Source of the DNA: a virus
Lineage: Duplodnaviria; Caudoviricetes
IMG/VR virus record: IMGVR_UViG_3300035492_000099
Location: 1 to 53,111 of that record
Length of the DNA stretch: 53,111 nucleotides
Reading direction: 5' to 3' (one strand)
Shown here: in pieces, positions 6,135 through 49,135 of the stretch
How the letters are laid out: each line of letters opens with the position of its first letter
Numbering within the stretch: position 1 is the stretch's first letter
Translations under genes and position numbers: made by a program
The notes under the pieces: generated by a model
Database searches by the model: none
Seen by the model: the letters and a program-made list of their open reading frames with translations, nothing else
What the model was told of the DNA's origin: nothing

Positions 6135-6484
6135 ATTCTCCTTGGTGAAAATTCAGCAAACGAAACTTCCCTTGGGGGCTTAAGAAATCTTATTCCCTAG
6201 GGTAGGTCTCTACTGAATAGACTTGAAGAGTATTCTCCCCGGAGCCAACACAGCCCATCATGCGTGATGGAACACTCTAACGAGTGTAAGACAGGATTAA
6301 CTAATTCACACATTAATCCCCGAGAGCCTTTCCCTCTGTGAAGAGGTCTGGTGTAGTGCTCTCAATCGTGGTGTTAACCATTCGACAACTTCCCCTACTC
6401 GTGCCTACCAATCCTTATGCACATAATTCCGAGGTAAGGACAAGTGATCAACAAAAACCCTCAGAATGTAAATTTTCATTTACA
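6135..6484 (-). ncRNA. Unknown structured element, copy A (paralog of 48796-49135)
   Basis: Own sigma70-type promoter; colinear conserved blocks and covarying stems shared with copy B; no credible ORF. Confidence 0.6.
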
Positions 6485-6490
6485 AAACAG

Positions 6491-6519
6491 ATAATATCAC
6501 GAGAAATGTAATTTGTCAA
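6491..6519 (-). promoter_or_regulatory. sigma70-type promoter driving element A
   Basis: TTGACA-17 nt-TATTAT with extended TG. Confidence 0.7.
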
Positions 6520-6550
6520 CTACTTTTTAACAAATAGTTGAAAATATTTC

Positions 6551-6579
6551 TTGACAAGGCAGAGATTTTATGAAACAAT
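6551..6579 (+). promoter_or_regulatory. sigma70-type promoter for the phoH operon
   Basis: TTGACA-17 nt-AACAAT with extended TG; divergent from the element A promoter. Confidence 0.55.
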
Positions 6580-6693
6580 ATATCTTCTGTCAACATCAAT
6601 AGAAAAATAAATTGTAAAAGATTGTAATTCCCTATTGACAAAACAGAGATTGTGTTGTAATATAGCATCATTCGTTGTAGAAAAGGAGGAAGA

Positions 6694-7503
6694 ATGGCAC
6701 GTAAACGAGCTGCGGCTACAAAAGTAGAAGAAGAACTAGAAATGTATGTCCCTCGAAAAAGGACAAGGGCTGTAAAAACAGAAAAGATGATTAAACCTAA
6801 GTTTGCAGAAGAACGAGAAGTACAAATCAAACTAATTGTCGCTAAGACAGAGAATCAAAAGAAGTATCTTGACAGTTTACAAAAGAACATGCTAACTGTG
6901 GGGAGGGGAAGTGCTGGTGTTGGAAAAACATATCTTGCTGCTTGTGTTGCTGTAAATAAATATTTGAAAGGAGAAGTTGATAAAATTGTTGTGATGCGTA
7001 GTGCAACACGTATGGGAGCCAACACAGGTTTCTATCCGGGAACAATTGAAGAAAAGCTAGCTTTCTTTTTAGCCCCAATTTTGAACACAATTAAAGAGCG
7101 TGTTGGGTATGCACGGTATGAAGCAGAGTTTGGTAAATCCATTGTAATTCAACCAATGGAAGCTGTGAGGGGGATGTCATTCAAATCTAAAACATATCTC
7201 ATTTGCGATGAAACCCAAAACGTCAGCCTTGAGGAAATACGTAGTCTTGTAACTAGGTTGGAAGATGGTTCACAAATTGCTCTTTGTGGAGATGACAAAC
7301 AAAAAGATATTAAAGGGTTGAGTGGTATTGAGTATATTTGTAATCTTGTGAAACGACACCGCATTCCTAACTGTGGGATTGTGGAGTTCACAACAGATGA
7401 CATTGTACGATCAGGGCTAACAAAACGATTTGTAGAAATCTTTGAAAAAGAAGGCCCAGTTTCTAATGTAGAACGTGCTTATGAGAAAGGAGAAATAATT
7501 TGA
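6694..7503 (+). CDS. phoH: PhoH-family ATPase
   Basis: GSAGVGKTYLA Walker A, GFYPGTIEEK, RGMSF, DETQN, GDDKQKD, DIVRSGL. Confidence 0.95.
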   Translation: MARKRAAATKVEEELEMYVPRKRTRAVKTEKMIKPKFAEEREVQIKLIVAKTENQKKYLDSLQKNMLTVGRGSAGVGKTYLAACVAVNKYLKGEVDKIVVMRSATRMGANTGFYPGTIEEKLAFFLAPILNTIKERVGYARYEAEFGKSIVIQPMEAVRGMSFKSKTYLICDETQNVSLEEIRSLVTRLEDGSQIALCGDDKQKDIKGLSGIEYICNLVKRHRIPNCGIVEFTTDDIVRSGLTKRFVEIFEKEGPVSNVERAYEKGEII

Positions 7504-8165
7504 AAACAAAAAATAATAAAGATATTACACAGGGGAACCCTCCTTTAGAACAAGTGTTTATTGTTGTAGAGCAATTGGTAAGCAACATCTACCATGTACA
7601 CCTTGACGAAGATATTGAGGATATGCCATACTATCGTAATGTCATCAGTGTTCTTAACAATGCTTCTCCAGATGATGTTGTTGTTTTCCATATTTCATCT
7701 GTTGGTGGTCATGTAGATACAGCAGTGAACATTTGTAATGCAATTCGATCTACAGAGGCACAAACTATCTCTGTGATTGAAACATATGCTATTAGTGCAG
7801 CATCTTTGTTTGTCATGTCAACTGACAGTGTTATTGCTATGCCACACTCCTACATGATGATTCACCCTGCCTCTTACGGCTATGTAGAAGATATGAAAAA
7901 ACTGCGTAAATTTGTTGAATTTCATGATAAACGATTGATGGAAATTATGCATGACTTCTATGAAGGGTTTCTTTCTAAAGAGGAAATTGAGAGCACCGTA
8001 GAGCACAGTATGGAAATCTGGTTGACAGCAGACGAGGTGATTGAGCGCCTTACAAATCGAGATGAACAACTGGCTGTTCTTGCAGATGGTGATGAAGATA
8101 TTGATGATATAATTCAGGAGATAACAGAATCTCCTAAACGTAAGAGAGGTAAGAAAAATGATTGA
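7500..8165 (+). CDS. ClpP-like protease
   Basis: ISSVGGHV, AISAASL (catalytic Ser), MMIHP (His), EIWLTADE. Confidence 0.85.
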   Translation: MKTKNNKDITQGNPPLEQVFIVVEQLVSNIYHVHLDEDIEDMPYYRNVISVLNNASPDDVVVFHISSVGGHVDTAVNICNAIRSTEAQTISVIETYAISAASLFVMSTDSVIAMPHSYMMIHPASYGYVEDMKKLRKFVEFHDKRLMEIMHDFYEGFLSKEEIESTVEHSMEIWLTADEVIERLTNRDEQLAVLADGDEDIDDIIQEITESPKRKRGKKND

Positions 8166-8325
8166 TTTTGATGTTAGCCCTTCTGGACTTGATGGTTATT
8201 ATGATTTCTCTGTATTTGTAGATAATTGTGTGGTGCACTATGGTCTTGTTCAAAAAGAAGTGTTGATTGGAATCCTTGTTGACTTAAAAGAGACAATTGA
8301 TGCAGAAATGGAAGAAATTGCTTGA
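8158..8325 (+). CDS. Small acidic hypothetical protein (55 aa)
   Basis: ATG overlaps the end of the ClpP-like gene; open to TGA at 8325. Confidence 0.55.
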   Translation: MIDFDVSPSGLDGYYDFSVFVDNCVVHYGLVQKEVLIGILVDLKETIDAEMEEIA

Positions 8326-8350
8326 CAAAGTAAACAAAGTGTGAAACAAT
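8322..8350 (+). promoter_or_regulatory. sigma70-type promoter upstream of the tRNA-like RNA cluster
   Basis: TTGACA-17 nt-AACAAT with extended TG. Confidence 0.55.
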
Positions 8351-8404
8351 AAAGATATGTTGATTGACATATCTTTATCCTGCACCGGGCGAGTGTGCAG
8401 GACT

Positions 8405-8551
8405 ATCATCAAGGCGGCGGCGTGGAAGGACACACACTGAATGGCATCAGCTAGTTCAGCCCCTCATAGGTATGGTGCAAAGTGGGTTCGACTCCCGCCA
8501 GAGGGACGCCACTGAACCAAGCCGGTTTCGAGTCCGGCCCGCCTTGATGGT
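8405..8551 (+). ncRNA. tRNA-like RNA with a second T-arm module nested inside
   Basis: 13-bp closing stem ATCATCAAGGCGG/CCGCCTTGATGGT; terminal T-arm GCCGG-TTTCGAGT-CCGGC; inner GTGGG-TTCGACT-CCCGC. Confidence 0.55.
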
Positions 8552-8575
8552 GGTTGCTCTTAACAGAGTAAGGGT

Positions 8576-8656
8576 TGGCTCTGAATGGCTAGTCAGCAGG
8601 GAGAAATCCTGTCGAAGCTGAATCCAAGCGAAGTTCGATTCTTCGCAGAGACATCA
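8576..8656 (+). ncRNA. Degenerate tRNA-like element
   Basis: T-arm GCGAAG-TTCGATT-CTTCGC, CTCT/AGAG closing stem, CAGG-GAGAAAT-CCTG hairpin; no canonical D-arm or CCA. Confidence 0.4.
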
Positions 8657-8857
8657 TCAAAAACAAATTGGGGCGTCACGGATATGTTGCTCATTCCCTA
8701 GAGCATTATCCGCATCAGGACGGACGGTTAAATTCCGTCATAAAATGTACAAACAATTGGCGAAGTTTGTATTCCTCTTCTCAGCTATGGGATCGTCGTC
8801 CCGAGACAAAAGACCTGTTCTGAAGATTTTAGGGGATTGGATGAACAGCCTTATTTT

Positions 8858-8895
8858 AGCCCTGTGCAGCAAATGTTGCATGGTGCTTTTCTTTT
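8858..8895 (+). terminator. Intrinsic terminator
   Basis: GCCCTGTGCAGC-AAAT-GTTGCATGGTGC hairpin followed by TTTTCTTTT. Confidence 0.6.
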
Positions 8896-8932
8896 GTGTT
8901 ATACTAACAGCACAGAAACAACAGGGGAGCAT

Positions 8933-9166
8933 ATGACATACGAAGAAGCTATGAATAAGATTGGAAAACATATTGTTATTATTCCTGAAGATGTACATTG
9001 GGAGGATGGATTTAAAGACCCAACAAATTTCTTCTTGACAAATGCCTTTGGTGAGCGTTATTATTTCAAAACTAGGAGCAGGGCTAAAGCCCAAGAGTGG
9101 GCTAATATGCTTTACGGTAATAATTTCTATATTGTTCGTCCTGTGTTGAAGGCGATAACACGATGA
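8933..9166 (+). CDS. Hypothetical protein
   Basis: ATG at 8933 after RBS GGGGAG; coupled to the next gene. Confidence 0.65.
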   Translation: MTYEEAMNKIGKHIVIIPEDVHWEDGFKDPTNFFLTNAFGERYYFKTRSRAKAQEWANMLYGNNFYIVRPVLKAITR

Positions 9167-9570
9167 AAGAAAAACACAAAAAAGCATACATGGAGTGTGC
9201 AGAGGCGTTTGCAAAATGCTCTGTCGGTAAAAGGCTAAAAGTTGGTAGCGTGATTGTTAAAAACAATAGGATAATCTCTTGTGGGTATAATGCACTACCT
9301 GAACACATAAATGGTGAATTGGAAAACGAGGAGGGTAGCACAAAACCTGAAGTTAGACACGCTGAAAAGAATGCACTAATGGGGTTAATACGTTCAAATG
9401 AAAATGCTGTTGGATCAACAATGTTTACCACCCACAGTTGTTGTAAATTTTGTGCTATTGACATCGTAGATTCCGGTATTGTAAAATTTATCTATAAAAA
9501 TGAATACCGATCATCTGAGGGTATACAATACCTTGTTGAAAATGGAATTTTAGTGGAGAAATTTGAATGA
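9163..9570 (+). CDS. dCMP deaminase
   Basis: KVGSVIVK, GYNA, HAEKNAL, CCKFCA zinc motif. Confidence 0.9.
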   Translation: MKEKHKKAYMECAEAFAKCSVGKRLKVGSVIVKNNRIISCGYNALPEHINGELENEEGSTKPEVRHAEKNALMGLIRSNENAVGSTMFTTHSCCKFCAIDIVDSGIVKFIYKNEYRSSEGIQYLVENGILVEKFE

Positions 9571-9839
9571 TTACATTAGCTCAAATCGTGATGGATGTTG
9601 CTAACAATGAAAGTCTTTGTTATAATGGACACAGTAGTTTTGTTCTTACACACCTGTCCCTAGAGGATGCAATACAGCTTTGTAAAGATTTAGAAGAAGT
9701 GGATGAAAATCATAATTCCTATACAATTGAGTTGTGGACAGATGGAAGTTTAACAATCTATTGTCAAGATTATTGGAGAAGTGGTGAACACCCTCTTGGT
9801 CATACAGCAAAACTAATACTTTCAGTGGATAGGCCGTGA
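9567..9839 (+). CDS. Hypothetical protein
   Basis: ATGA-coupled ORF within the operon. Confidence 0.6.
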   Translation: MITLAQIVMDVANNESLCYNGHSSFVLTHLSLEDAIQLCKDLEEVDENHNSYTIELWTDGSLTIYCQDYWRSGEHPLGHTAKLILSVDRP

Positions 9840-10393
9840 ATTTTAAATATACAATCTTAGTAATTGGAATTATATTTTCTACTTTTGTTGCTGTTTTGTT
9901 TTATAGTAACCCCGAAAAGAAGTTGACAAGTCAGCCTATTCCTCTTATAATAACTTCTGAAAATGAGTATGATGCAGTTGAATATGGTAAGAGATGGTGC
10001 AAAATAAACAAGGATTGTTCAATCCTCGCGTCTGTGGGCTACTATGAAAGTCGGAATCAAAGTGATGTCGGTGTCATTGGAGTGATGCGAGTGGTTTTAA
10101 ACAGAGTTTCTAATCCTAGGTTCCCAAATACAATAAAAGATGTTGTATATGATGGATGTCAATTTAGTTTTGTGTGTGATGGGTCATTAAATAAAGCAGA
10201 ACAATCACATAAACAGTGGGATAGAATGTATTCTTTAGCTTATCGTGTTTTAGTATTAAAGGAAGGGAAAGGAGACTTCCATTACAGTACACACTACCAC
10301 ACTACAAATGTAAACCCGTTTTGGGCAAAGAAGTTTAAGCCTGTAGTTGTATTGGATGACCATATTTTCTACAGGTGTGTTGGTTATTGTTAA
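9836..10393 (+). CDS. Cell wall hydrolase (SleB/Hydrolase_2 family) with N-terminal membrane anchor
   Basis: YYESRNQ, VVLNRVSNPRFPNTIKDVVY, CQFSF, HYHTTNVNPFWA, HIFY. Confidence 0.9.
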   Translation: MNFKYTILVIGIIFSTFVAVLFYSNPEKKLTSQPIPLIITSENEYDAVEYGKRWCKINKDCSILASVGYYESRNQSDVGVIGVMRVVLNRVSNPRFPNTIKDVVYDGCQFSFVCDGSLNKAEQSHKQWDRMYSLAYRVLVLKEGKGDFHYSTHYHTTNVNPFWAKKFKPVVVLDDHIFYRCVGYC

Positions 10394-10400
10394 GATTTTT

Positions 10401-10436
10401 GCTCCTCAAGCTTAAGTGGTATAAGCGTCCGACTTG
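10401..10436 (+). pseudogene. 5' half of an interrupted tRNA (probably Thr-UGU)
   Basis: Acceptor GCTCCTC, D-arm GCTT-AAGTGGTAT-AAGC, anticodon stem TCCGA then CTTG; matches the 3' half at 10881-10922. Confidence 0.75.
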
Positions 10437-10455
10437 GGGAGCAATGTGAATATAT

Positions 10456-10530
10456 ATCCCCCTAGCTCAATGGGAGAGCAGCGTCCTCATAAGACGTTGG
10501 TACTTGGATCGAAACCAAGGAGGGATACCA
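10456..10530 (+). tRNA. tRNA with CAU anticodon (Met or Ile2)
   Basis: ATCCCCC/GAGGGAT acceptor, GCTC/GAGC D-stem, GCGTC-CTCATAA-GACGT, CTTGG-ATCGAAA-CCAAG, ACCA end. Confidence 0.88.
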
Positions 10531-10544
10531 ATTAGGTAAAGTAA

Positions 10545-10880
10545 ATGAAAGATTATGAATTCAATGGTAAAATTTATAAAATAAGCCAAAACGGTATAGT
10601 TTATTCCCCAACTGGAAAAATTATGGCATTGATTGATAATGGTACTGGGTATTTACAGGTTACATTAAACAGTGGTAATATGAGAAAGAAAATCTATATT
10701 CACAGGTTAGTATGGGAAACTTTTAATGGTCAAATCCCAACCAACTTAGAGGTAGATCATTTGGATGAAAATAAAAGCAATAATAATTTGTCCAATCTAA
10801 CATTAGTTACCAGAAAGGAAAATATGACTAAAATGTTAAAAAGTAATCCACACATACTATTGAACCTTAAACAATATTGA
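10545..10880 (+). CDS. HNH homing endonuclease
   Basis: GYLQVTL, IHRLVWETFNG, EVDHLDENKSNNNLSNL. Confidence 0.9.
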   Translation: MKDYEFNGKIYKISQNGIVYSPTGKIMALIDNGTGYLQVTLNSGNMRKKIYIHRLVWETFNGQIPTNLEVDHLDENKSNNNLSNLTLVTRKENMTKMLKSNPHILLNLKQY

Positions 10881-10922
10881 TAATCGGGTGACAGACAGGT
10901 TCGAGTCCTGCGGGGAGCACCA
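10881..10922 (+). pseudogene. 3' half of the interrupted tRNA
   Basis: TAA-TCGGG anticodon stem 3' side, CAGG-TTCGAGT-CCTG T-arm, GGGGAGC-A-CCA complementary to GCTCCTC at 10401. Confidence 0.75.
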
Positions 10923-10929
10923 AGTAAAT

Positions 10930-11005
10930 GCGTCTGTAGCTCAGTGGATAGAGCAGTTGGTTTCTACCCAACGTGGCGGGGGTTCGAGTCCCTCCAGACG
11001 CGCCA
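10930..11005 (+). tRNA. tRNA-Arg(UCU)
   Basis: GCGTCTG/CAGACGC acceptor, GTTGG-TTTCTAC-CCAAC, GGGGG-TTCGAGT-CCCTC, GCCA end. Confidence 0.93.
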
Positions 11006-11029
11006 GATTTTTAAACAAAAGGAGAAGTT

Positions 11030-11254
11030 ATGAAAGATGTATTTTGGGTGATTTCAATTATTCTGTTTTGGATTTTGATGATTATTTTGGGGCCATATTT
11101 TACAATCATGTCCTTAAATGTTTTATTTGGTACACAAATTGTGTTTAATATCCATTCTTGGCTTTCGTGTTTCTGGTTGGGAACAATGTTTATCTCTTGG
11201 GTGAAAGCCGGAACAAAGATGGCAATTAAAGAAACATCTGAGAATCAAGTATGA
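11030..11254 (+). CDS. Small membrane protein
   Basis: RBS AGGAGA; two hydrophobic segments. Confidence 0.65.
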   Translation: MKDVFWVISIILFWILMIILGPYFTIMSLNVLFGTQIVFNIHSWLSCFWLGTMFISWVKAGTKMAIKETSENQV

Positions 11255-11481
11255 ATATTGTAATTTATAAAGGTGAGATCATTTATGAAGATGAGGGGTG
11301 GGAAATTCTCACCTATCCATCTAAAGCACATAAGGATGTCTTGTTGAAGGATGATCGTGAGTGCCTTCTGGATGCTTTGGAAGCCACAGGATACGATGTT
11401 GCACGATTGCAGCAATTTAAGACAGAAGAGCTAGAGCAATTCTGTTTATCCCGTGGAATGTACGTACAATTGATTGATTAA
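11251..11481 (+). CDS. Hypothetical protein
   Basis: ATGA-coupled ORF. Confidence 0.6.
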   Translation: MNIVIYKGEIIYEDEGWEILTYPSKAHKDVLLKDDRECLLDALEATGYDVARLQQFKTEELEQFCLSRGMYVQLID

Positions 11482-11499
11482 GGATAGAGGAACACATTT

Positions 11500-12396
11500 A
11501 TGAATATGATTATTGTCGGGAGTGTGGCAGGAATGAAGCATAAGTGTGTTCCTCCACGAAAATTAAAAGATGTTGATGTTATTGGAGAATATGCTTCAAC
11601 CAAAGCATTTGCATCCTCCTTTGGAGAAATCAATGAGGAAAAGGAGACAGCAAAGGGAACAATCTTTTTCACAGAGAACATGATTGTTGAATTGGAGGAT
11701 ATTGACAAATCTGAACATAGTAGTAGACTATTTTCCGATATGCAGAAGGATGCAGTTGACAAAGTGTATGCCTCTGCTGAATGGCTCTACTTCTTTAAGT
11801 TGTCCCATCGTTTCAAGAAGGATAGCCCTCACTTCTGGAAAACAGTGAGAGATATTTTCTACATGCGAAGCAAAGGAATCACCCTTCCTAACAATTCTGA
11901 AGGTTTGATGAAGGAAAGGGAGGAGTTGACATACACAAACAAACTCCCTAAACTCAATGTAAAGAAAACAGATTTCTTTAAAGAAGAGGAAGTATATTGG
12001 AAGTACGAGCACGATGACATCCACGTTGCTGTAAAACTATATGACAAGCCTGCATACACATACTTTCTAAAAGACGGTGAAGAAGTTATGACTGATAAAA
12101 ATAAATTCTTTTCTCTACCAAAGGATATTCAACTTGCATCTTGTTGTGAGGAAGCCATTACACTCACAGCAGAGCGTAGTTTAATTCCATTTGACTTCAG
12201 ACCTGATCCAGATAAGATGTTTCTGTTTTCATTGATGAAGGTATGCACAAGTATTACATCCGGGTATTTTAGGGAATTCTCGTATGATAATATTTATGAT
12301 ATTATCAAGATGTATGATCAGAAGTACAAGGGTTGGTGGGTAGACAAAGTGAAGGAGGGTATTTCAAATGGCTCTATCAGAGAGGTACAAAATTAA
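11500..12396 (+). CDS. Phage protein with Pol-beta-like nucleotidyltransferase signature
   Basis: N-terminal IVGS...KDVDVI (hGS...DhD); HDDIH; SITSGYFREF. Confidence 0.55.
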   Translation: MNMIIVGSVAGMKHKCVPPRKLKDVDVIGEYASTKAFASSFGEINEEKETAKGTIFFTENMIVELEDIDKSEHSSRLFSDMQKDAVDKVYASAEWLYFFKLSHRFKKDSPHFWKTVRDIFYMRSKGITLPNNSEGLMKEREELTYTNKLPKLNVKKTDFFKEEEVYWKYEHDDIHVAVKLYDKPAYTYFLKDGEEVMTDKNKFFSLPKDIQLASCCEEAITLTAERSLIPFDFRPDPDKMFLFSLMKVCTSITSGYFREFSYDNIYDIIKMYDQKYKGWWVDKVKEGISNGSIREVQN

Positions 12397-12410
12397 AGGA
12401 GAACTTAAAA

Positions 12411-12689
12411 ATGGATAAATCACAAATTAAGAATTATGATGAATTGAAGCAGAAAGTTGACAAGATCAATGAAACTATCCTATCCTTGAAAAAGGAATAT
12501 GATGAGAATAATCTTGAACAACGGATGTATGAAGCAAATGAAGAAAAGTATTCCATCCAAGAGGAAGTTGTAGATGCCATTATCGGGGTTGTTGGTGAAG
12601 ATTGTTTGGTATCTTGTTCTGTAATTGCTAATCACATAGGTCTTGAAGTGGAAAGCACCTATTGGATGCCTTCTAGTGCAATTTGTTGA
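12411..12689 (+). CDS. Small acidic protein ending YWMPSSAIC
   Basis: ATG at 12411 after RBS AAGGAGA. Confidence 0.7.
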   Translation: MDKSQIKNYDELKQKVDKINETILSLKKEYDENNLEQRMYEANEEKYSIQEEVVDAIIGVVGEDCLVSCSVIANHIGLEVESTYWMPSSAIC

Positions 12690-12699
12690 GGAGAATTTA

Positions 12700-13044
12700 A
12701 TGGCGTATATTCCTGAAGGATGGGTGGTCTTTAAGATCAGAGATGTGTATAAAGTGTTTGGATCATGGGGTGGTGGGTATTTGGATGGTGATTCTTGGCG
12801 CATCAATTCGGGAATTGAAAGCATTGAAGAGGAGGTTGACGCCTTGGTATTCAAGGGATACTCTGGGAGTGAATACTTTTGCTTAAAGGGGTCGTATGGG
12901 CGAATTTCAGGGTATAACCTCAGTGTTTTAAATAATTTTATTGAGCGTTGTAAAAATCAGGGATATGATATGTTTGTATATGGGTCTGTGTCTGATTTCA
13001 TGCAAGATTGGAATGAATCTTTGGAAGGAGGTGGAAATGACTGA
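12700..13044 (+). CDS. Hypothetical phage protein
   Basis: YKVFGSWGGGYLDGDSWRINSGI, FKGYSGSEY; ATG at 12700 after GAGGAG. Confidence 0.75.
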   Translation: MAYIPEGWVVFKIRDVYKVFGSWGGGYLDGDSWRINSGIESIEEEVDALVFKGYSGSEYFCLKGSYGRISGYNLSVLNNFIERCKNQGYDMFVYGSVSDFMQDWNESLEGGGND

Positions 13045-13222
13045 ACAAGAAATTAAAGAGGAAATGAAGAGACTTGTATATGAAGCGGAAGCTAAACTTG
13101 TTGAAGCTGAGAGATTTGCAGAAGAAAACAAAATTGGCTTTAGTTGGGAGCCAGCTTACGGGATGGGTGGTTGGTATGATGGTGAAGAACAACAGTGGTA
13201 TCCGTCTAGTGAGTCTTGTTAG
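13037..13222 (+). CDS. Small acidic protein ending WYPSSESC
   Basis: ATG at 13037 after GGAGGTGG. Confidence 0.7.
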   Translation: MTEQEIKEEMKRLVYEAEAKLVEAERFAEENKIGFSWEPAYGMGGWYDGEEQQWYPSSESC

Positions 13223-13232
13223 GAGAATATAT

Positions 13233-13436: not shown

Positions 13437-13451
13437 ACAAGGGAGAAAGAA

Positions 13452-15110: not shown

Positions 15111-15121
15111 AGGAGAAATAA

Positions 15122-15478: not shown

Positions 15479-15572
15479 TAGATTATTTATATTGTTTCTT
15501 TCACACAATCATTTGCTTAGATGTTATAATGAATCTTGTTAGGGTATTTTTGCTATATGAGTTAAAAATCAT

Positions 15573-19939: not shown

Positions 19940-20049
19940 TTATGTTGTATTTTAACAGCATCCAAATTATACTTTGTAACTTATTGATATATATGATATA
20001 ATTTTCAATATCCTTGAAATACAAAGTAGTGTGTTAAAATACAAAATAA
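19940..20049. repeat. About 110-bp imperfect inverted repeat containing an IHF consensus site
   Basis: TTATGTTGTATTTTAACA / TGTTAAAATACAAAATAA, TACTTTGTA / TACAAAGTA; TATCAATAAGTTA on the minus strand at 19977-19989. Confidence 0.65.
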
Positions 20050-20400
20050 CATTACAAAATAATGTAAATATACATGGGAATAACGAATATATCCTATGAA
20101 CAACATAGTCTATATTCTATGGGAAACCATTTCCCAATTCCCCTATAAAAGCATATAGCAATTAAATATTAATTCCTATATTCCAAATATCAAAATATCC
20201 TTAGAACATCTCTTTAAAACATCTATAGGGCTGCTAATATTCGTCGCTTTAGTGTCTGGTCTTAACGCCCCAAGGCGTAGCCCTATCACATATTACCATA
20301 ATTGTCAAATATCCTAGTGTAACAGAATATTTATTACGTAACTAATTGTAAATCTATTTGACTATTCTTTGAATATATGCTATAGGGCATTAGCCCTATC

Positions 20401-20540
20401 GAGAATGATTCTCATTCTCTCATAATATTAACATCATTCTCCTTTATCATTGTTTCACATGAAACATTGTAAATAGAAATCATTCTTATTTGTATTACAC
20501 TGTTATAATGTAATAATGTAAATGAGAATAATTGTTATTT
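20401..20540. promoter_or_regulatory. Fur-box-like sites (left cluster)
   Basis: GAGAATGATTCTCATTCTC (20401-20419, 15/19 to GATAATGATAATCATTATC), AATAGAAATCATTCTTATT, AATGAGAATAATTGTTATT. Confidence 0.6.
20451..20466. promoter_or_regulatory. parS-like site 1
   Basis: TGTTTCACATGAAACA, 15/16 to TGTTTCACGTGAAACA. Confidence 0.7.
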
Positions 20541-20661
20541 GTGTTTTATTGTACCTGTTGTGTAAAAACAACAGCTATTAAATGTAACTAAGTATTTTCT
20601 TTGTTAAACAATTGTAAATGTAACAATACATTTAAATTGTAACAGAGTGTAATTGTCCTTG

Positions 20662-20710
20662 ACAACCACTATATCTTGTGGTTGTTACAAAGTGTAACAC
20701 TATATAGTGT
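20662..20710. promoter_or_regulatory. NrdR-box-like palindromes
   Basis: ACAACCACTATATCTTGTGGTTGT and ACACTATATAGTGT. Confidence 0.55.
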
Positions 20711-20770
20711 GTAACAGAGTGTAAGAGGCTTAGTCCATCCATACCTTACGGCATGTATTCCCTGCGCTAT

Positions 20771-20786
20771 TGTTCCACGTGAAACG
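20771..20786. promoter_or_regulatory. parS-like site 2
   Basis: TGTTCCACGTGAAACG. Confidence 0.7.
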
Positions 20787-21046
20787 TGGATTATATAGGC
20801 TTATTCCCTACCATAGGCAATTACGCCAGTTTACATCAAAAGATATTATATGTAATTACATTATATAAATTTATATATTGTTCTTTTCTTATATATCCTT
20901 TTGTTATATAAATCTAATGATTTATTCCCTGTTTTATTTGTATTGTTTTTGTGTACAGCCGTTTTAAGCTGTTTTTATGCTTTCCCTATGGTTACCTATT
21001 GGTAGACAAAGAAAAACGGCGCTATGGCCGTTTAAATCGTTTCTGT

Positions 21047-41810: not shown

Positions 41811-41817
41811 ACATCCC

Positions 41818-42819
41818 TCAAATTAGTTTATATCTTTTTAAAATAGAGTGGACATCAACATAGTCTTTGTCTTTGTTTCTCCACATATGCACAAGATTAA
41901 AGCATTCTTGAAACACGTAAAGAGCGTCTATTTCAATCTCATCGCCTCTCCACCCAATAATCTTTTTCTTTTCTGGATATAGGTGTCTAAAGACCTCCCA
42001 CATCACTTTCCACGCTTCTCTGTCTGACTTAACATCTTTCAAAGCATTGTAACTACTCATATCAGCCCATTTAATATCAGAGAAACAATTAGCTTTATAA
42101 TTGTCTACACTATCTCCGTTGATACATTGAAAATATTTCCAAATACGTCCATAACCATAAACATCACCATTAGGCTGAATAGACAATTCTCCAAACACAT
42201 CACAATCAATAACACCCCGGTCAGGATAGTTTGGATTAAACACTTTAACAGGACATCCGAGAGCATCCTTATCAATAGCACAAACAACACCGCCTTCTTC
42301 CAAAGCTGTAATGATGCACATGTCATCTGCTTCCAATCCTTCAACAATTTGTGCACTGTGATGTTTAATCAAATAATCTTCCATTTCCTCTTTCAATAGG
42401 GGCTTACCATCTGGATCACGATTTCCCTTATATTCAAGCAATGTAGAAAAACCGTGTCTAAAAGACTTCCCTCTCCCAATATAACCAATATATTCTGTGC
42501 AATTGGTTTGTTCCAATGCTTTATTGATCATTATCTTGGAAGTGTGCAGAGCATTTTCAATAGGCTCTGCAACACGTATTGTTTCTACAGAGAATTCTTC
42601 TCTTGTGAAAGGAGATAGACCCTTTTCAATACGCTTTGTATTTGTTTCCCCAAGCCATCCTTCAATTTCTTTCTTTTTTCTTCCCCAGAATTCCGTAACA
42701 TTCTTAAATGTTCTTTTCCTCCCCGAAGGAATATGAGTTACGATGATATTCCTGCTTTCACTAGCAAATCCAGCGGCATACAATATCCAATCGTAATCTA
42801 TTACAAGCAATTTGCCCAT
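41818..42819 (-). CDS. 5'-3' exonuclease (T7 gp6/RNase H-like)
   Basis: IDYD, YKGNR, LEADD, IDKD, GDSVDNY. Confidence 0.9.
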   Translation of the reverse strand: MGKLLVIDYDWILYAAGFASESRNIIVTHIPSGRKRTFKNVTEFWGRKKKEIEGWLGETNTKRIEKGLSPFTREEFSVETIRVAEPIENALHTSKIMINKALEQTNCTEYIGYIGRGKSFRHGFSTLLEYKGNRDPDGKPLLKEEMEDYLIKHHSAQIVEGLEADDMCIITALEEGGVVCAIDKDALGCPVKVFNPNYPDRGVIDCDVFGELSIQPNGDVYGYGRIWKYFQCINGDSVDNYKANCFSDIKWADMSSYNALKDVKSDREAWKVMWEVFRHLYPEKKKIIGWRGDEIEIDALYVFQECFNLVHMWRNKDKDYVDVHSILKRYKLI

Positions 42820-42938
42820 TCTTATTTCCTCTAAGCCACTTAAAGCCTCTCTAAGCGTTTTAAATAAGAAAGGAATACCGAAGTATCCCTTTATGATTTA
42901 AATTGAATAGAGGCCCGTTTAGAGCCTCTAAGAGCTAT

Positions 42939-43202
42939 TTAAGCGTTAGCAACAACGTCTACAACAGCTTCCAATGCTTCGAGCTTTGCTTTTTGTTCAT
43001 CTAGGTTGGCTTTAAAGATTGTTTCAATCACTTTAGTGACTTCTGCTGGAGGAATTTCATATTCCTCTTTCAAATGTGCAGCAATGTCTTTGATGGATTG
43101 TTTGCTTTCTTCAATCTGCCAACGAATCTGAACACCTTCGTTAATTGCTTTAATGATTGCTTCACGCTTGTCGAGGTTGTTAATACTGTTTAGAATTTCC
43201 AC
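42939..43202 (-). CDS. Putative dsDNA-binding protein (T4 DsbA-like)
   Basis: Helical 87 aa, IKDIAAHLKEEYEIPP. Confidence 0.5.
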   Translation of the reverse strand: MEILNSINNLDKREAIIKAINEGVQIRWQIEESKQSIKDIAAHLKEEYEIPPAEVTKVIETIFKANLDEQKAKLEALEAVVDVVANA

Positions 43203-43248
43203 TTATTTCTCCTTTAAATTAAAAACCACTTAAAACACACCTTCATGG

Positions 43249-44112
43249 TTAGAAGGGAACCCCATCAGGATCGTCATCAAATGCGCTATCTGGAATATAT
43301 ACATCATCCACTTGTTCTGGTGTTGCCTCTTTCTTAGCTGTTGCTTTCTTTGCTGCTACCTTTTTAACTGGTGCTTTAACCTCTTGCTTAGGAGCATTCA
43401 GCGACTTAACAACATCAACAGAGAAAGGAACAATATCATTGACAAATTCAATAATGAAATCAAACACTTCATCAAGATCATCACACAATTGTGCAGCAAT
43501 CACTGTGGCCTGTCCCGTCGCAACCCCAACTTCAAAATCAGACATAGAGGGGTTGGCTTCTTTCACTGCAAGACGAGCTTTGTGTGACACTTCAGCAAAG
43601 AATTTGATTGCCTCTTTCATCTCTACACCATCAAATCGAGACATCCACGCTGCTGCTGCTGTACGAGCATTGCCTGCAACAATTGGTGTGTCATCCTTCT
43701 TAGCGTATGTGTTCGAAGAACCGCCTTGTGAAGTTTGTGGAGCACGTTGTGCTTGTGCAGGTGCGCCTTGTCCTTTTTCAAGGAGTTTGATTTTGCTTGT
43801 TGCGCTGTTGTAATAAGTTTTGCCATTATACTCGCTTGGTGTAACAATGATACGCACCGTATCACCAACATCAACAGATTCCCATTTAGGGCTTACCTTC
43901 GAACCAGTGTTAATGCGAATCTGGGGTTGTATCCCTTCTTTGGTTTTAACATTGACATTGTTCACCCAATCATCACCAATTCGGATACCGAATTTATGTG
44001 TATTATCAAACTTATCATTAGCGAGTTCTTTCACAGAAAGTTGTTCAATAACACCTTCAACAAGAGTCATTTCGCTATCATCAACTGGATTTGTTACTGT
44101 TTTAATTGCCAT
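43249..44112 (-). CDS. Putative single-stranded DNA-binding protein
   Basis: OB-like N-terminus, acidic tail ending DDDPDGVPF, in the replication module. Confidence 0.55.
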   Translation of the reverse strand: MAIKTVTNPVDDSEMTLVEGVIEQLSVKELANDKFDNTHKFGIRIGDDWVNNVNVKTKEGIQPQIRINTGSKVSPKWESVDVGDTVRIIVTPSEYNGKTYYNSATSKIKLLEKGQGAPAQAQRAPQTSQGGSSNTYAKKDDTPIVAGNARTAAAAWMSRFDGVEMKEAIKFFAEVSHKARLAVKEANPSMSDFEVGVATGQATVIAAQLCDDLDEVFDFIIEFVNDIVPFSVDVVKSLNAPKQEVKAPVKKVAAKKATAKKEATPEQVDDVYIPDSAFDDDPDGVPF

Positions 44113-44132
44113 ATTTTAATTCCCCTTTTAAA

Positions 44133-44318
44133 TTACCGTACAAATTTTTGTGCAGCGTATTGCACAATCTTCAAATTCTTCAAACCTTTATTAATTTCAA
44201 GGCTTCCTTTACGAGCACGGGCTTTCTGCCGTGTATTCACAGGAGCGCCATACACATATCCTGTAGAACGATTAACAACAACATAGAGGTTGATTGGAAT
44301 TGATTTATTTCGATTCAT
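44133..44318 (-). CDS. Small basic hypothetical protein
   Basis: RBS AAGGAGA. Confidence 0.6.
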   Translation of the reverse strand: MNRNKSIPINLYVVVNRSTGYVYGAPVNTRQKARARKGSLEINKGLKNLKIVQYAAQKFVR

Positions 44319-44331
44319 TTATTTCTCCTTA

Positions 44332-44535
44332 TTAATTGATACAAACAGCATTCAGAGGATCATCACCACTAAAATCCATCTCACCCTCAAACAAAGTTCC
44401 TGCTGAGGCGCTGTGATAGACCTTGTGGTAGTCATTCCCTTCATCGTCAGAGGCATATACAACATCTAATTCTGCCCATTCCGGGTTTTCTTTCAATTGT
44501 TTTGAGAGGATTCCCACATAATCTTTAAACTTCAT
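44332..44535 (-). CDS. Hypothetical protein
   Basis: VVYASDDEGNDY; RBS AAGGAGA. Confidence 0.65.
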   Translation of the reverse strand: MKFKDYVGILSKQLKENPEWAELDVVYASDDEGNDYHKVYHSASAGTLFEGEMDFSGDDPLNAVCIN

Positions 44536-44565
44536 TTTCTCTCCTTTAATGAGACAAGAAACGAT

Positions 44566-44594
44566 ATTGTTTCATACTTTCAAGAATTTGTCAA
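44566..44594 (-). promoter_or_regulatory. sigma70-type promoter
   Basis: TTGACA-17 nt-AACAAT with extended TG. Confidence 0.55.
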
Positions 44595-44610
44595 GCACTT
44601 TATAAAATAT

Positions 44611-46701
44611 TTAGTGCGTTTCTTTCCAGTTTTTTCCATGTTTTCCTTCTCCTGCTAGTTCAACATTGAGTTTAAGATATTGTCCTGCTTTTTTAATAGC
44701 CTTTTCAATCATCTTACTCACTTCTTCTGCAATAGGCTCTTCACATTCGTATTCGGCCTCGTCATGAAAATAGCCGATGCGTCGAACAACATAGTCCTTG
44801 TAGAGATAATATGGTCTGCGTTTATCATCCCAATAAATCTTTCCAAGCCAACTATCCATAAAGCAACAAGCATAGTCCATAACAATTCCACCACAAGATT
44901 GGAATATTGTGTTTAACAAAGCACTCTTTTTCCTTGTGATAAGAATACGCCCATCAATTGCAGGAAGATATTTCTTTTTCCCCTTACTTTCCCAATATTT
45001 CTCAAGAGCATCTTTGAGTTTCTTAGTGCCTTCGTTTGCTTTCCAGAATTTCTCTGAAATCTCCTTACCCCTGCTTTCTGGCAACCCTGCTGTTGAGGCA
45101 ATCTTGGCATCTCCTGCTCCATACATCGCAGCATAATATACGTTCTTACTTCGATCACGGTAAGGTTTGAATACAGGATCATCTTTGTTGAAATTTGGAG
45201 ATGTGATGTCGAAATCTTTCAATTTATCTTCATAGACAGATTTAGCTGTCTTACTATGAATGTCACCATCAAGCAATTCTTTAGCTGTTTCACCTTGGTC
45301 GTATCTCCAACAATAATGCCCTTGCACCCTACCTTCTAAAGCTGCTGCATCTCCTGCTGCAATTAACATCCCATCTTCAGCAATCCACAATGAGCGAAAC
45401 TCATGTCCTAGAAGCACTTTATCAGATGCCTTTGGTACATTAACAACTACCTTGTGCTTTTGCCTGTGTGTGGACGCTATCCCTGTGCGTCCTGCGCCAA
45501 TCCTCCCATCATATTTTAATCGTGGATTATCTAACCACCCTTGTAGCACAGATTGTCGATTACGAAGAGATAGCCACTTAACAACAAGCTTAACTAAATC
45601 CCCATCCATTGCTTCAAGATTTGGGCAAATACGTCCTTGCTCTTGAATTTTTGGTGTTGTGGGAATCAATTGTCTTGTTACAGGATCACGCATTGGTTTC
45701 CCATCTGGCCCTCGCTTGTAATTAAACAAGGTGGGTTTCCAACCTTGCTCCAAAAACCAACTCTTCATTTGATCCTGATTTGCCATCTCCATCGGCATTG
45801 CCACATCTAAGAGAGCGCCACCAACAACTTCATAATCTTTACCATAGAATTCAATAACTCCTTCTTTGATAGCACCATTGTGCTTTTCAATGAATTTCAA
45901 CATGTGTGAAGAATACGTCCCATCCTTTTTAAACGGTTTTGCTGGCATTGTATATTCTTTCTGCTCTGTTTTCTTTAACCCACGAGGAGGAAGTTGTGGT
46001 TCAACAATAGCGCGTATTTCCTCCATCATATCACCAATTCTGTCTTTCAACTTCAATCCTGCTTCAATATCAAATTTCCACCCTGCAAGCTCTTGGCAAG
46101 ACATCAGAAAGAATGCCTTTTGTCCACACTTATATGCGTCTGTTATTTTAAAATCTGATTCGTAAATTGCTTTCCACTCTTGTTTCAAATATTGAAAAAC
46201 CTTAGCACCGACAATGGTGTCTGTAGAACAATACTCCTCCATCAATGGGTGATAGAATTTGAATTGCTCACCATCTGGAGCATCTTTCGGCAATACACCA
46301 AGATTAATAAGCTCTTGACGATAATCAAGTTTAGGAAACCCCAACAACCCACCAAAGTATTCAATACTGTGTCCTTCACGGTCTGGATTCAAAAACATTG
46401 AGAGGTAGTAGGTATCAATAAACTGGACAGGTTTCCCTTCAATCGTGTCTGGCCCAACGGTAAAATCAATATCAAGAATGTTCCTCAACACAAAGATGTC
46501 AAATCCCAGCCCATTATGGAAAACAATTTCAGGGCAATCCTCTTGAAAAATAAAAGAAATCAATTCATCTTTTGAATTCTTATTCTTAAAAGGGTTTGTT
46601 GAGAATCTCTCTTTTGTTTTTGTATTTGTTGCATGAATTGTCCAGATTTTTGTAGATTCAAAAACAAAACCATCTGATTCAATATCGATCACTACACTCA
46701 T
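44611..46701 (-). CDS. DNA polymerase family A (T7-like)
   Basis: DIESDG exo I, HNGLGFD exo II, DAAALEGR motif A, RDRSKNVYYAAMYG motif B, FHDE motif C. Confidence 0.96.
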   Translation of the reverse strand: MSVVIDIESDGFVFESTKIWTIHATNTKTKERFSTNPFKNKNSKDELISFIFQEDCPEIVFHNGLGFDIFVLRNILDIDFTVGPDTIEGKPVQFIDTYYLSMFLNPDREGHSIEYFGGLLGFPKLDYRQELINLGVLPKDAPDGEQFKFYHPLMEEYCSTDTIVGAKVFQYLKQEWKAIYESDFKITDAYKCGQKAFFLMSCQELAGWKFDIEAGLKLKDRIGDMMEEIRAIVEPQLPPRGLKKTEQKEYTMPAKPFKKDGTYSSHMLKFIEKHNGAIKEGVIEFYGKDYEVVGGALLDVAMPMEMANQDQMKSWFLEQGWKPTLFNYKRGPDGKPMRDPVTRQLIPTTPKIQEQGRICPNLEAMDGDLVKLVVKWLSLRNRQSVLQGWLDNPRLKYDGRIGAGRTGIASTHRQKHKVVVNVPKASDKVLLGHEFRSLWIAEDGMLIAAGDAAALEGRVQGHYCWRYDQGETAKELLDGDIHSKTAKSVYEDKLKDFDITSPNFNKDDPVFKPYRDRSKNVYYAAMYGAGDAKIASTAGLPESRGKEISEKFWKANEGTKKLKDALEKYWESKGKKKYLPAIDGRILITRKKSALLNTIFQSCGGIVMDYACCFMDSWLGKIYWDDKRRPYYLYKDYVVRRIGYFHDEAEYECEEPIAEEVSKMIEKAIKKAGQYLKLNVELAGEGKHGKNWKETH

Positions 46702-46710
46702 TTTCTCTCC

Positions 46711-48369
46711 TTAAAATGTTTCTGGTGCGTCCTCCATAAGAATCACATCCCATGTTTCGTCATCAAGCATGAAAGTGTCTGCAACACCTGTATAGCCCCA
46801 AGGACGATTTTTAAGAGATGTGAGGCGTACACGACCACGAGAACGATCAGGCATAATCTCAGGCTCTAGTCCGAGAACAATCCATGATAGCTGCTCTAAT
46901 GAACTACTGCCACGCATCATCTCCTTGGTGATCTTCACCCAATAAGGCTTCTCTTCCTCTCCCTCTTTCACTTTTGGAGCTTTAAACAAGTCTGCTGCAC
47001 TTCGGTTGATGTGTGATACAGCAATAACGCACACATCGTTGGCAGCACAAAATGCTGCAAGTGATGTCATGGCAACATCTAGCTCTTTACGCTCATCCGT
47101 TACTTCCAAACCAGATAGTAGCATAGAAAGGTGATCAACAATAATGTAACGACAGCCTTCTACCAAGTGCATATGTTTAATTTTGTTCATAAACTCCGAA
47201 ATACGCAAGCTTCCAAAATGATCTAGCATAACAAGATTATCATTATTAATCAAGTTGTTGTAAGCTTCTGTAATTTCTTCTACAGTGGCACAATCCAACG
47301 GATTACTCTTAAACTTCAAATAACTCACTTTCAAAGAAGAAGCCAACAAGCGTTGCATTGTTTCCTTATTATCTTCTTCAAGATAAATCATGCCAACCTT
47401 TTCTCCTGCTTCCATGAAAGCAGAAGCAAACAGAGAAGTAACCGTTGATTTGCCCACGCCCGAGGGGGAGGTCAATACAACCAACTCTCTTGTCCTAAAT
47501 CCGTGAATTTTGTCCATCAATTTAGGGAAACATTCTACATAAATCCCCTCTTCTCGTGGTGTTAAGATTTCTTCCAAAGAAATATCTGAAGCTTTGATAA
47601 TCTTTTCTGCTACATAGTCCTTCTTACCAAACTGAACAAGCTTTGCAAGATCGCCTGATTTATTGGCTTGCATGTAGTCTGAAGCGTCTTTAAACTCTCC
47701 CTCTGCTTCCACCACTTGCAATTTCAATCCTGAATCAATGAAAGCTCCTGCAACAGCGTTACGAGCTTCTTTGCCCTTCATAATATTCTTTTTCAACTCT
47801 GCTGGTGTGCAATGGTCGTTGTCAAAGAACAATGTCATTGCAGTGTGGGATTTTATATACTCTTCATTATGCAAGAGTGATTCAACAGCGTTTGCTGTAC
47901 CCATCGGGATGCTAACAACTAGAGGCTCAATCCCTTCATACTTTGTCCCTGCTACGCTGTCAACAAGAGATTGGAATGTGCTAATAGCGTCCCACTGGCC
48001 TTCAGTTACAATTAGGTTTGTGCGTTTGCGGTTAATCTTTTCTGCAACTTGTTGTCCGAACAATTTATTGGCAATATTGACACTGCCAATAGTGCTCCAG
48101 TGGTATTTCTCTTCTTTTCCTTTAGACAAGTCTTGTTTAGTATACCCTGTAATCTTTCCTTTCTGATTAAAGGAGGGGAAATAGATTGCTGTTGGGGTTT
48201 TCCCATCTTGTTCGGAGACAGCCACTTTTACACCAAATCTCTCCAAGATTTCTTTACGAATGCCGCGTTCAGGGACATCGTGTGTTCCTAGAGATTCCAC
48301 TTCCTTCACTGTTTCTTTTGCTTCTACGTTCACATTCTCTCCTTTGCTAGACTTCTTCCAATATGACAT
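46711..48369 (-). CDS. Primase-helicase (TOPRIM + DnaB-like)
   Basis: TEGQWDA, FDND, KDASD, SPSGVGKS, IVDHL, VSHI, RGS, KNR. Confidence 0.94.
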   Translation of the reverse strand: MSYWKKSSKGENVNVEAKETVKEVESLGTHDVPERGIRKEILERFGVKVAVSEQDGKTPTAIYFPSFNQKGKITGYTKQDLSKGKEEKYHWSTIGSVNIANKLFGQQVAEKINRKRTNLIVTEGQWDAISTFQSLVDSVAGTKYEGIEPLVVSIPMGTANAVESLLHNEEYIKSHTAMTLFFDNDHCTPAELKKNIMKGKEARNAVAGAFIDSGLKLQVVEAEGEFKDASDYMQANKSGDLAKLVQFGKKDYVAEKIIKASDISLEEILTPREEGIYVECFPKLMDKIHGFRTRELVVLTSPSGVGKSTVTSLFASAFMEAGEKVGMIYLEEDNKETMQRLLASSLKVSYLKFKSNPLDCATVEEITEAYNNLINNDNLVMLDHFGSLRISEFMNKIKHMHLVEGCRYIIVDHLSMLLSGLEVTDERKELDVAMTSLAAFCAANDVCVIAVSHINRSAADLFKAPKVKEGEEEKPYWVKITKEMMRGSSSLEQLSWIVLGLEPEIMPDRSRGRVRLTSLKNRPWGYTGVADTFMLDDETWDVILMEDAPETF

Positions 48370-48761
48370 GTTTCTCCTTTATTCAGTGGGCATTCCAATT
48401 TGATTTTACATAGGAATCTAAACTATCATAATATTTATATTTTGGAAATTTCTTCGTAATCTTTTGAATATATTTATCGCCATTGGAATATACATGATTT
48501 GTTTTAATCAATACTCTCGGAAAATCCATAAAGCTTATCTGCAAGAATGTCTTTATTATCTTCCAAGATGCTTTTTAGTTGAACTAGCACATCTTTTGTA
48601 TTGTTCATGAATTTCTCCTTTGAAAATTGATAACGCATATTAACATACACATCTCCACCTTGTCAACTATTTTTCTACTTCTGATACAGATGAAATATTC
48701 TTTCATTTTTACATCTTACATGAAATTTTATTTCATTTTTAACAAATATTGAAAATAATGC

Positions 48762-48790
48762 TTGACAAATCTAAACTTCCATGATATACT
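48762..48790 (+). promoter_or_regulatory. sigma70-type promoter driving element B
   Basis: TTGACA-17 nt-TATACT with extended TG. Confidence 0.75.
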
Positions 48791-48795
48791 GCCGT

Positions 48796-49135
48796 TAAAT
48801 TGTAACAAATGTATTGGGATTTTTGTTGAACCAATTGTCCTTGACCAATACATCATAGCCCAAAAGGAAGACACGGGGCAAGCAGAGGAAGTTGCTGAAT
48901 GCTAATATAGCACAGTTGGAAGCACTGCGTCAAGACTCTTCAGAAAGAGGAAGGCTTCCGAGGAATTGTTATTCTGATACGACAATTCTGTATCGTGTGT
49001 TTTAACACATTCTATCATGCGTGATAGGCTTCATTGGCTCCAATGTTAATGTAAGTGAATACCAAACTTGAGGAGAGAATAGACATCTATTTTCGCCTCA
49101 AGGGGAAGTTGTGTTCGCTTATTTCACCAATGTTA
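48796..49135 (+). ncRNA. Unknown structured element, copy B (paralog of 6135-6484)
   Basis: Colinear conserved blocks and covarying hairpins shared with copy A; no ORF. Confidence 0.6.

Follow-up and report, generated by a model that had tools for sequence, protein, structure and literature searches.

Why does a phage keep two diverged copies of one noncoding element, each set behind its own promoter-like sequence at a point where gene orientation turns? The question is raised by IMGVR_UViG_3300035492_000099, an IMG/VR viral contig that is classed as linear, measures 53,111 bp and has an estimated completeness of 48%; the whole of this stretch is referred to here as the window. A first-pass annotation had described two paralogous structured elements in it, here called copy A (minus strand) and copy B (plus strand), and had offered two functions, a trans-acting RNA or a transcript-primed replication origin. 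Both copies are present at the positions described, and a paralogous family of structured noncoding RNAs is borne out by five further homologs and by strong covariation of the kind expected of structured RNAs in general. We tentatively favour, with a little less than even confidence, the reading that A and B are paralogous genes of a large (~330–430 nt) structured noncoding RNA family whose members would be independent, early-expressed and trans-acting. The carriers are a few related phages of Gammaproteobacteria, including the cultured Pseudomonas phage vB_PsaM_M1. The interest of the family lies in the retention of two diverged copies by one phage; few early promoter-like sites in the regions studied look as strong as those in front of the RNA.

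The two copies in the window

Copies A (6100–6540, reverse complement) and B (48740–49180) align colinearly, and 247 of 319 aligned columns are identical over the transcribed parts, which measure 365 and 354 nt. Copy A (6120–6484, minus strand; GC 43.7%), delimited by folding and alignment, is a type 1 RNA made up of a short 5′ hairpin, a core of helices P1–P7, a 3′ domain and an AU-rich tail. Its 5′ half (6321–6467, minus strand) contains P1, P2, P3/P3a and P4/P4a together with a first GGAAGTT at 6387–6393, and is scored at 155.1 and 142.8 bits by the covariance models R1, a model of the 5′ half of A, B and homolog C, and R2, which was built from A to D. Helices P5, P6 and P7, as far as UUGGCUCC, occupy 6240–6321 (minus strand) and score 99.5 bits with R3, a model made from P5–P7 of A and B only. 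The 3′ domain (6129–6244, minus strand), whose helices P8/P9 were assigned manually, carries the second GGAAGTT at 6164–6170 and lies between twin S sites on the same strand (S1, 6226–6244; S2, 6129–6147). Copy B (48797–49150, plus strand) is likewise of type 1 by folding and alignment, with no open frame. Its 5′ half (48809–48960; P1–P4; first GGAAGTT at 48887–48893) scores 165.2 bits with R1 and 154.8 bits with R2, its helices P5, P6 and P7 (48961–49042) score 102 bits with R3, and its 3′ domain (49038–49143; second GGAAGTT at 49104–49110) is again bounded by twin S sites, CCAATGTTAATGT at 49040–49052 and at 49127–49139, all on the plus strand.

The five hairpins that had been reported to keep their pairing while changing their sequence were all found and are named P3a, P4a, P5, P6 and P7. 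GGAAGTT occurs exactly twice in A and exactly twice in B, as annotated. The GC content of the RNAs is 40–47%, against 37% for the window, in keeping with selection on the RNA itself. The minimum free energy of copy A has a z-score of −1.97, with 4 of 100 shuffles folding equally well, and that of copy B a z-score of −3.14, with 0 of 100. AT-rich tracts do follow both copies, a 151-nt spacer behind A (5984–6134, minus strand; 20.5% GC) and a 184-nt tract behind B (25.0% GC), where the window as a whole has 37.3%; the homologs do not conserve the spacer found behind A. GC content falls to its minimum for any kilobase of the window at 20001–21000 (29.0%), where plus- and minus-strand gene blocks converge.

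Homologs and distribution

With the five further homologs, C, D, E, F and G, the family comprises seven sequences in about six lineages. C, found in G001/G002 by a two-block pattern scan, has a TTGACA promoter, sits at the site syntenic with that of A and is followed by an HNH-like gene. It is the single RNA copy in G002 (87,321 bp, 94% complete), where the sequence upstream of the helicase gene is coding. The closest cultured relative of the window is phage vB_PsaM_M1 (OP714164.2; 89,387 bp; filed under Ounavirinae), whose PolA has 69.6% amino-acid identity to that of the window. The sole R1 match in this record (3215–3364, 25 bits) marks D (~3170–3600), which falls where the annotation is empty and the gene strands diverge; it is preceded by TTGACA-16-TAAGAT and also carries the 3′ blocks UGGCUCC and UUCACCAA. 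Model R2 recovered E in G003 (49 bits), F, near-identical to E, in L194 (52.3 bits), and G in L268 (21 bits). R3 finds C, E and F at 34.9, 16.9 and 15.1 bits, in each case exactly abutting the 5′-half match. A helicase/polymerase cluster begins a few kb from each of D, E and G and is transcribed away from the RNA, which is the same kind of site as that of B.

Variants of copy B were seen in two sequencing runs. The contig from run X7 covers 48744–49264 with 17 substitutions in 521 positions and with insertions only at 49001 and at 49072–49095, which is P8's inner hairpin; its sequence before 48744 is unlike the window, and it has 479 other letters in place of 49265–49319. The contig from run X9 covers 48845–49027 with six substitutions. 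Pieces from X3 and X8 that matched the window fell outside the RNA.

The element is accessory and patchily distributed, since complete relatives lack the RNA and only one of 80 helicase-anchored loci is positive. No credible R1 or R2 match was obtained in G004, G005 and G006, which are complete with terminal repeats (best R2 E-value above 4 in each), or in G007, and no credible RNA match in the partial records G008–G011. Protein-anchored loci gave 0 of 36 for PhoH, 0 of 4 for the helicase and 0 of 1 for the RNA ligase; the 80 loci anchored by helicase alignment, with 10-kb flanks and 1.18 Mb in sum (some loci being short), gave the one match. R2 returned nothing credible on vB_PseuGesM_254, Cellulophaga phi17:2_18 and FelixO1. 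An R1 match of 16 bits in L173 was rejected as a false positive composed of a promoter and a tRNA, and weak R2 matches in G009, G002:1756–1882, G010 and G008 (10.6–14.3 bits) were set aside as coding sequence or partial. Pattern scans of viral contigs yielded at least 117 chance matches, or the C contigs alone; another yielded six stretches, four of them chance matches and the others E and F, and scans of metagenomes and genomes yielded the G002 contig only.

One relative without the RNA, L125, has a PhoH as near to that of the window as is the PhoH of G002. Its A-type site (2990–3180) consists of two TTGACA..TGATATAAT promoters with ~190 bp between them that are nearly all A and T, and past this tract lie a small open reading frame (ORF) and a tRNA-like sequence (by eye). 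The whole contig of G002 is filed in GTDB within a metagenome-assembled genome labelled Gammaproteobacteria (L199), either as a binning artefact or as a hint of the host. A reverse-transcriptase-like ..YIRYVDD.. motif was read by eye at L189:1480–1700 (G002 ~1735–1955), and this phage may encode a reverse transcriptase.

Covariation and the predicted fold

A MAFFT alignment of A, B and C, made blind to structure, accommodates 56 pairs in eight helices with 95.1% of the cells paired, and in 23 of these pairs both partners have changed. No shuffle out of 500 scored as well, and sliding the partners by 1–3 columns left 38–47% paired with 0–6 pairs double-changed. Over P5–P7, for which five sequences were aligned, 22 pairs are 94.4% paired and 16 have changed on both sides. 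The 5′ half, with seven sequences, gives 29 pairs and 95.0% of cells paired, with 19 pairs and 40 cells double-changed; none of 500 shuffles equalled this, and the slid partners were 38–46% paired. Across all tested alignments, 0 of 500 shuffles attained the observed values and the slid controls were 35–50% paired. Cells with G.U exceed those with A.C by 16:4, 6:2 and 14:1 in three alignments, which indicates that the promoter-sense strand is the folding strand.

Helices P1, P2, P3, P4/P4a, P5, P6 and P7 are conserved, and the 3′ domain is more variable, being larger in D, E and F. Within this framework the sequences of helices and loops vary freely, and conservation is concentrated in the junctions and internal loops, namely the M blocks, AGCAC..CAAGAC, GGAAGGCU, UGGCUCC and UUCACCAA. 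Varying helices joined by conserved junctions are the pattern of what would be a compact tertiary fold. A pseudoknot between the P1 and P2 loops is tentatively proposed; it has one compensatory change within type 1 (UCCUU/AAGGA versus UUCUU/AAGAA) but falls out of this register in D, E and G. The complementarity between the P7 loops of A and B (CGCA, UGCG) was judged not significant.

Twin internal motifs

A 7-mer (M) is present in each RNA as exactly two copies, whose positions correspond between homologs; it reads GGAAGTT in A, B and C, GAGAATG in D and GAGATTG in E and F, and in G, GGAGTG is seen twice by eye. Each also contains a pair of S segments 88–121 nt apart, one behind UGGCUCC and one behind UUCACCAA. 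These segments read GGAGAAT in A, CCAATGTTAATGT in B, GAGAAT in C, AGAGGATAGAT in D, GGGGAATAT in E and, by eye, AGTAGGAT in G, and the 13-mer of B occurs in the window only as its two exact copies. The local scores of the S pairs are 7, 13, 6, 11, 13 and 10 within RNAs and 2–9 across RNAs, the near-identical E/F pair excepted; the high scores within and low scores across RNAs indicate that the S segments change together. The twin motifs thus present an unusual covariation, by identity instead of complementarity, for which a mechanism is called for. Pairing of S1 with the nucleotides just behind it, to give a hairpin, is possible in A, D, E and F (by eye). A complementary partner common to the twin motifs in all homologs was looked for in stem lists and by eye; no consistent one emerged, and candidates are present in some. 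The M1/M2 and S1/S2 pairs would be determinants of specificity or processing.

Promoters and neighbouring genes

The promoter that had been assigned to each copy is present, with a TG upstream of the −10 box and 11 of 12 consensus positions in both: TTGACA-17-TATTAT, an extended −10 promoter, ahead of A (6491–6519, minus strand) and TTGACA-17-TATACT ahead of B (48762–48790, plus strand). In A and B the RNA starts from a few to ~25 nt behind this near-consensus promoter of the host sigma-70 type, and a TTGACA promoter precedes all seven copies, A to G. A second site, TTGACA-17-TAAAAT, lies upstream of A (6593..6565, minus strand), and boxes of the same sequence, with 11 of 12 consensus positions, make up another sigma-70-like promoter past RNA B, ahead of the gene that follows it (49257–49285, plus strand). 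Counting this one, five of the seven copies (all except A and C) have an additional TTGACA-type promoter, placed inside or after the RNA and ahead of the next ORF. An antisense promoter-like site, TTGACG-18-TATATT with TG and 10 of 12 matches, lies inside RNA B (48904–48933, minus strand), and no counterpart is listed in A. In the 3′ domains of D, E and F (L177:3474–3502; L178 ~1760–1790), a conserved TTGACAGATTCTG block opens an internal TTGACA-17-TAAGAT / TATAGT promoter-like site; the block may serve as a promoter within the RNA gene, or its conservation may reflect a segment of the RNA. Terminator-like sites are not enriched downstream, 6 having been found against 7.8 and 5.8 expected.

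Gene orientation switches at A and at B, as annotated, and strand divergence is observed for all copies examined with their surroundings (A–E and G). Copy A separates the PhoH and ClpP genes (plus strand) from genes for an HNH-like protein, DUF5681, terminase and portal (minus strand), and copy B separates genes for a DnaB-like helicase and PolA (minus strand) from an RNA-ligase group (plus strand). What follows the RNA differs from copy to copy, the genes being unrelated: HNH-like (A, C), an RNA ligase (B), hypothetical (D) and phosphatase-like with a CX5R motif read by eye (E), and in C, D and E the next ORF begins 15–35 nt past the RNA. The gene after A (5483–5983, minus strand) encodes an HNH-like protein of 166 aa with NUMOD4 motifs and is treated here as a neighbour; that after C (L121:3094–3588, minus strand) encodes one of 164 aa. 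These two proteins are 32% identical over 162 residues by BLASTP and 34% by MAFFT, and have two NUMOD4-like GFEG..Y modules apiece. The first His of what we take to be the HNH motif seems by eye to be replaced in both (..vsFKDGNKEN..), and they may be inactive nucleases or binding proteins.

Directly behind RNA B, its neighbour the Rnl1-like RNA ligase gene (49286–50227; phrog_562, E = 9.8e-47) is followed by genes for a phosphoesterase (50347–50904; phrog_547) and a polynucleotide-kinase-like ATPase (51076–51564; phrog_2071/505), all on the plus strand, and the three make an apparent RNA-repair group. A gene for a deoxynucleoside monophosphate kinase (52315–52890) lies beyond this group.

Catalogued RNA families and coding sequence

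That the element matches no known class, as had been stated, agrees with a scan of the whole window against Rfam 15 (4227 covariance models), which at gathering thresholds gave only two tRNAs. In E-value mode (E ≤ 10), 7 and 4 matches were returned on 5900–6700 and 48600–49400, all well below gathering; the best reached 24.3 bits against a gathering threshold of 60, and all are chance matches to snoRNA and lncRNA models. ARAGORN found only tRNA-Met (10456–10530) and tRNA-Arg (10930–11005) in the window, and the element is neither tRNA nor tmRNA. When A, B and D were compared by distant-mode blastn with 50,697 phage records, the one match was D to itself. The family is thus uncatalogued and without a catalogued relative in Rfam 15. 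Viral structured RNAs were catalogued in 2023 as a set of over 10,000 unnamed candidates (PMC10690425), and the element may be listed there without a name.

A protein-coding gene was considered and rejected. The earlier statement that the copies lack an ORF holds in all six frames, every frame having at least five stops in A and at least three in B; C has at least three per frame, and no open frame is conserved. A 57-aa hypothetical coding sequence, UZS00817.1, is annotated at OP714164.2 3441–3614, overlapping the 3′ domain of D. This call is probably spurious because the same frame is closed in E, by a stop at the seventh codon (by eye). The GenBank record of vB_PsaM_M1 has no RNA annotation at D, and a literature search on the name of this phage found no paper.

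Function and rival explanations

Transcription of the RNA by the host RNA polymerase would take place at the very start of infection. As an independent or 5′-processed stable transcript, the RNA would then act in trans, either by binding a host or phage factor, as a protein-binding scaffold or decoy, or by catalysis; it would be neither a replication primer nor a gene-specific leader. Of the two functions first proposed, the trans-acting RNA remains the best reading, by inference from sequence. To our knowledge, few structured RNAs exceed 300 nt and combine many covarying helices with junctions that are conserved. Earlier RNAs of this size and kind proved to be ribozymes, ribonucleoprotein cores or large self-assembling RNAs. 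A more specific form of action would make the family a new class of large phage RNA with an active biochemical role. In it the RNA would be a ribozyme or self-processing RNA whose S sites are cleavage/ligation junctions that release or circularise the 3′ domain, or else a decoy, made early, against a host defence that targets RNA, its specificity set by the fast-evolving twin motifs. Such action is conceivable but doubtful. Since D is carried by one member of the cultured pair vB_PsaM_M1 and Pseudomonas sp. ZM01, the expression, structure, partners and phenotype of the RNA are directly testable.

Several points weigh against an independent trans-acting RNA. Its expression, ends and stability are deduced from sequence. 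No intrinsic terminator was found behind the scanned copies, and with an ORF 15–35 nt further on in C, D and E the RNA may simply be how an mRNA begins. Few members are known, seven sequences in about six lineages with E and F near-identical, and R3 misses D at E ≤ 1. Three alignments (A6, A11 and A13), including those of P5–P7 and of the seven 5′ halves, follow the model structure and so have inflated pair counts; the MAFFT alignment of A, B and C (A2) alone is structure-blind. Helices P8–P10 and the pseudoknot of the P1 and P2 loops, assigned manually and inconsistent across types, are less certain than the rest.

The terminator-free 3′ side and the close ORFs of C, D and E are also what a cis-acting leader of an early operon would have, working on its own transcript or on the polymerase that makes it, whether as a processive antiterminator of the put type, a 5′ stabiliser or a riboswitch-like sensor with S1-X-S2 as the switch. 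Transcription from a strong promoter invariably meets the RNA first, and the RNA is always oriented with the downstream operon; the two diverged copies face away from each other, as do putL and putR; and by eye S1 pairs with the next segment in A, D, E and F while S2 has the sequence of S1, giving the logic of a three-element switch. However, transcripts from the other sigma-70-like promoter within or past the RNA, present in five of the seven copies, bypass most of it, and these extra promoters together with the unrelated downstream genes favour an independent unit over a leader. The RNA is moreover five to six times as long as a put RNA, and terminator-like sites downstream are as frequent as expected (6 against 7.8 and 5.8). 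A leader is therefore a possible but unlikely account. The other function first proposed, a transcript-primed replication origin with promoter, structured primer RNA and AT-rich unwinding element, fared worse. Promoter, structured transcript and AT-rich tract do coincide at A and B, copies B, D, E and G stand at a divergence point by the helicase/DNA polymerase cluster, and the RNA-less L125 has its very AT-rich tract with promoters at the A-type site. Yet A and B are the only copies with a long AT-rich tract behind them, C, D and E having just 15–35 nt before the next ORF; the antisense promoter-like site is found in B only; and turns of the GC skew merely follow gene orientation. The RNA is missing from the three complete terminal-repeat relatives and from 79 of the 80 helicase-anchored loci, which argues against an origin, since an essential origin would be kept. 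We regard an origin as very unlikely.

The same patchiness among relatives, with two types of site, would suit a selfish or exchangeable module, an RNA gene of slight use to the phage, spreading by recombination or by endonuclease-assisted homing with the HNH-like genes targeting it. An HNH-like gene stands behind A and behind C, and the B module in the X7 contig is changed at 17 of 521 positions and is flanked by unlike sequence. Nevertheless, B, D, E and G have no HNH-like neighbour, and by eye the first His of the HNH motif seems to be replaced in both proteins. Compensatory changes and conserved junctions extend across deep divergence (the PolA of G003 is ~31% identical), which indicates long-term selection on the RNA fold, and we give the selfish module little credence. 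Direct repeats that are identical within an element and different between phages resemble sets of operators or iterons, and several promoters cluster there, so that the region could be a regulatory one at the DNA level, with the M and S motifs as operators for DNA-binding proteins particular to each phage, tandem promoters and an incidental fold. Compensatory changes in 7–9 helices and a G.U bias on one strand are beyond what duplex DNA can explain, however, and A and B carry different S motifs in one phage; such a region is hardly tenable as an explanation.

Evolution

The pairwise identities of A, B and C are 77%, 81% and 81% of aligned columns. As the three are about equally distant, B cannot have been copied recently from A. 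Divergence is much greater in D, E/F and G, whose carriers are themselves distant, the PolA of G003 being ~31% identical to that of the window. In X7, pieces of flanking genes differ from the window at 56 of 281, 25 of 198 and 23 of 189 positions, and the nearer helicase piece (48235–48384) at 11 of 150; compared with the B module, these values hint at extra constraint on it or at its recent exchange. On our reading, the family belongs to some lytic relatives of Pseudomonas phage vB_PsaM_M1.

Comparison with known systems

The put RNAs of phage HK022 are about 70 nt long, consist of two stem-loops, act only in cis and bind the transcribing polymerase. As with putL and putR, the window has two diverged covarying copies that are noncoding, each just downstream of one of two divergent early promoters. 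Unlike them, the present RNA measures 330–430 nt, has at least seven helices, is accessory and is followed in five of the seven copies by an extra promoter before the next gene. A cis antiterminator of the put type is disfavoured, since in B, D, E, F and G the RNA does not lie between all early promoters and the genes.

Primer or origin transcripts are known from ColE1 (RNAII), from the R-loops of T4 oriF and oriG, and from the ori transcript of the lactococcal phage c2. With these the element shares a promoter, a structured untranslated transcript and, in A and B, an AT-rich tract, and some copies stand beside replication genes. It differs from them in that the AT-rich tract is not conserved and the element is dispensable in complete relatives. 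Neither a conserved antisense regulator nor a hybrid-forming G/C segment came to light.

Copies A and C, as ~300-nt structured RNAs immediately upstream of an HNH-family ORF, also recall HEARO, the omega-RNA of IscB (presumably RF02033). Unlike that system, no Rfam match was obtained, the ORF encodes a NUMOD4/HNH-like protein of 164–166 aa and not IscB, and no HNH-family gene lies directly downstream of B, D, E, F or G, which make up five of the seven copies.

Of the two further large RNAs to be compared, ROOL and GOLLD, which we take to be RF03087 and RF01998, neither Rfam model matches the element even at E ≤ 10, and the present RNA is smaller, narrower in distribution and of another architecture. 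Both are described in PMC12286853 as large ornate RNAs often found in phages and prophages. The likeness is one of kind: the present family, like them, is a large multi-helix noncoding RNA, borne by phages and built around conserved junctions.

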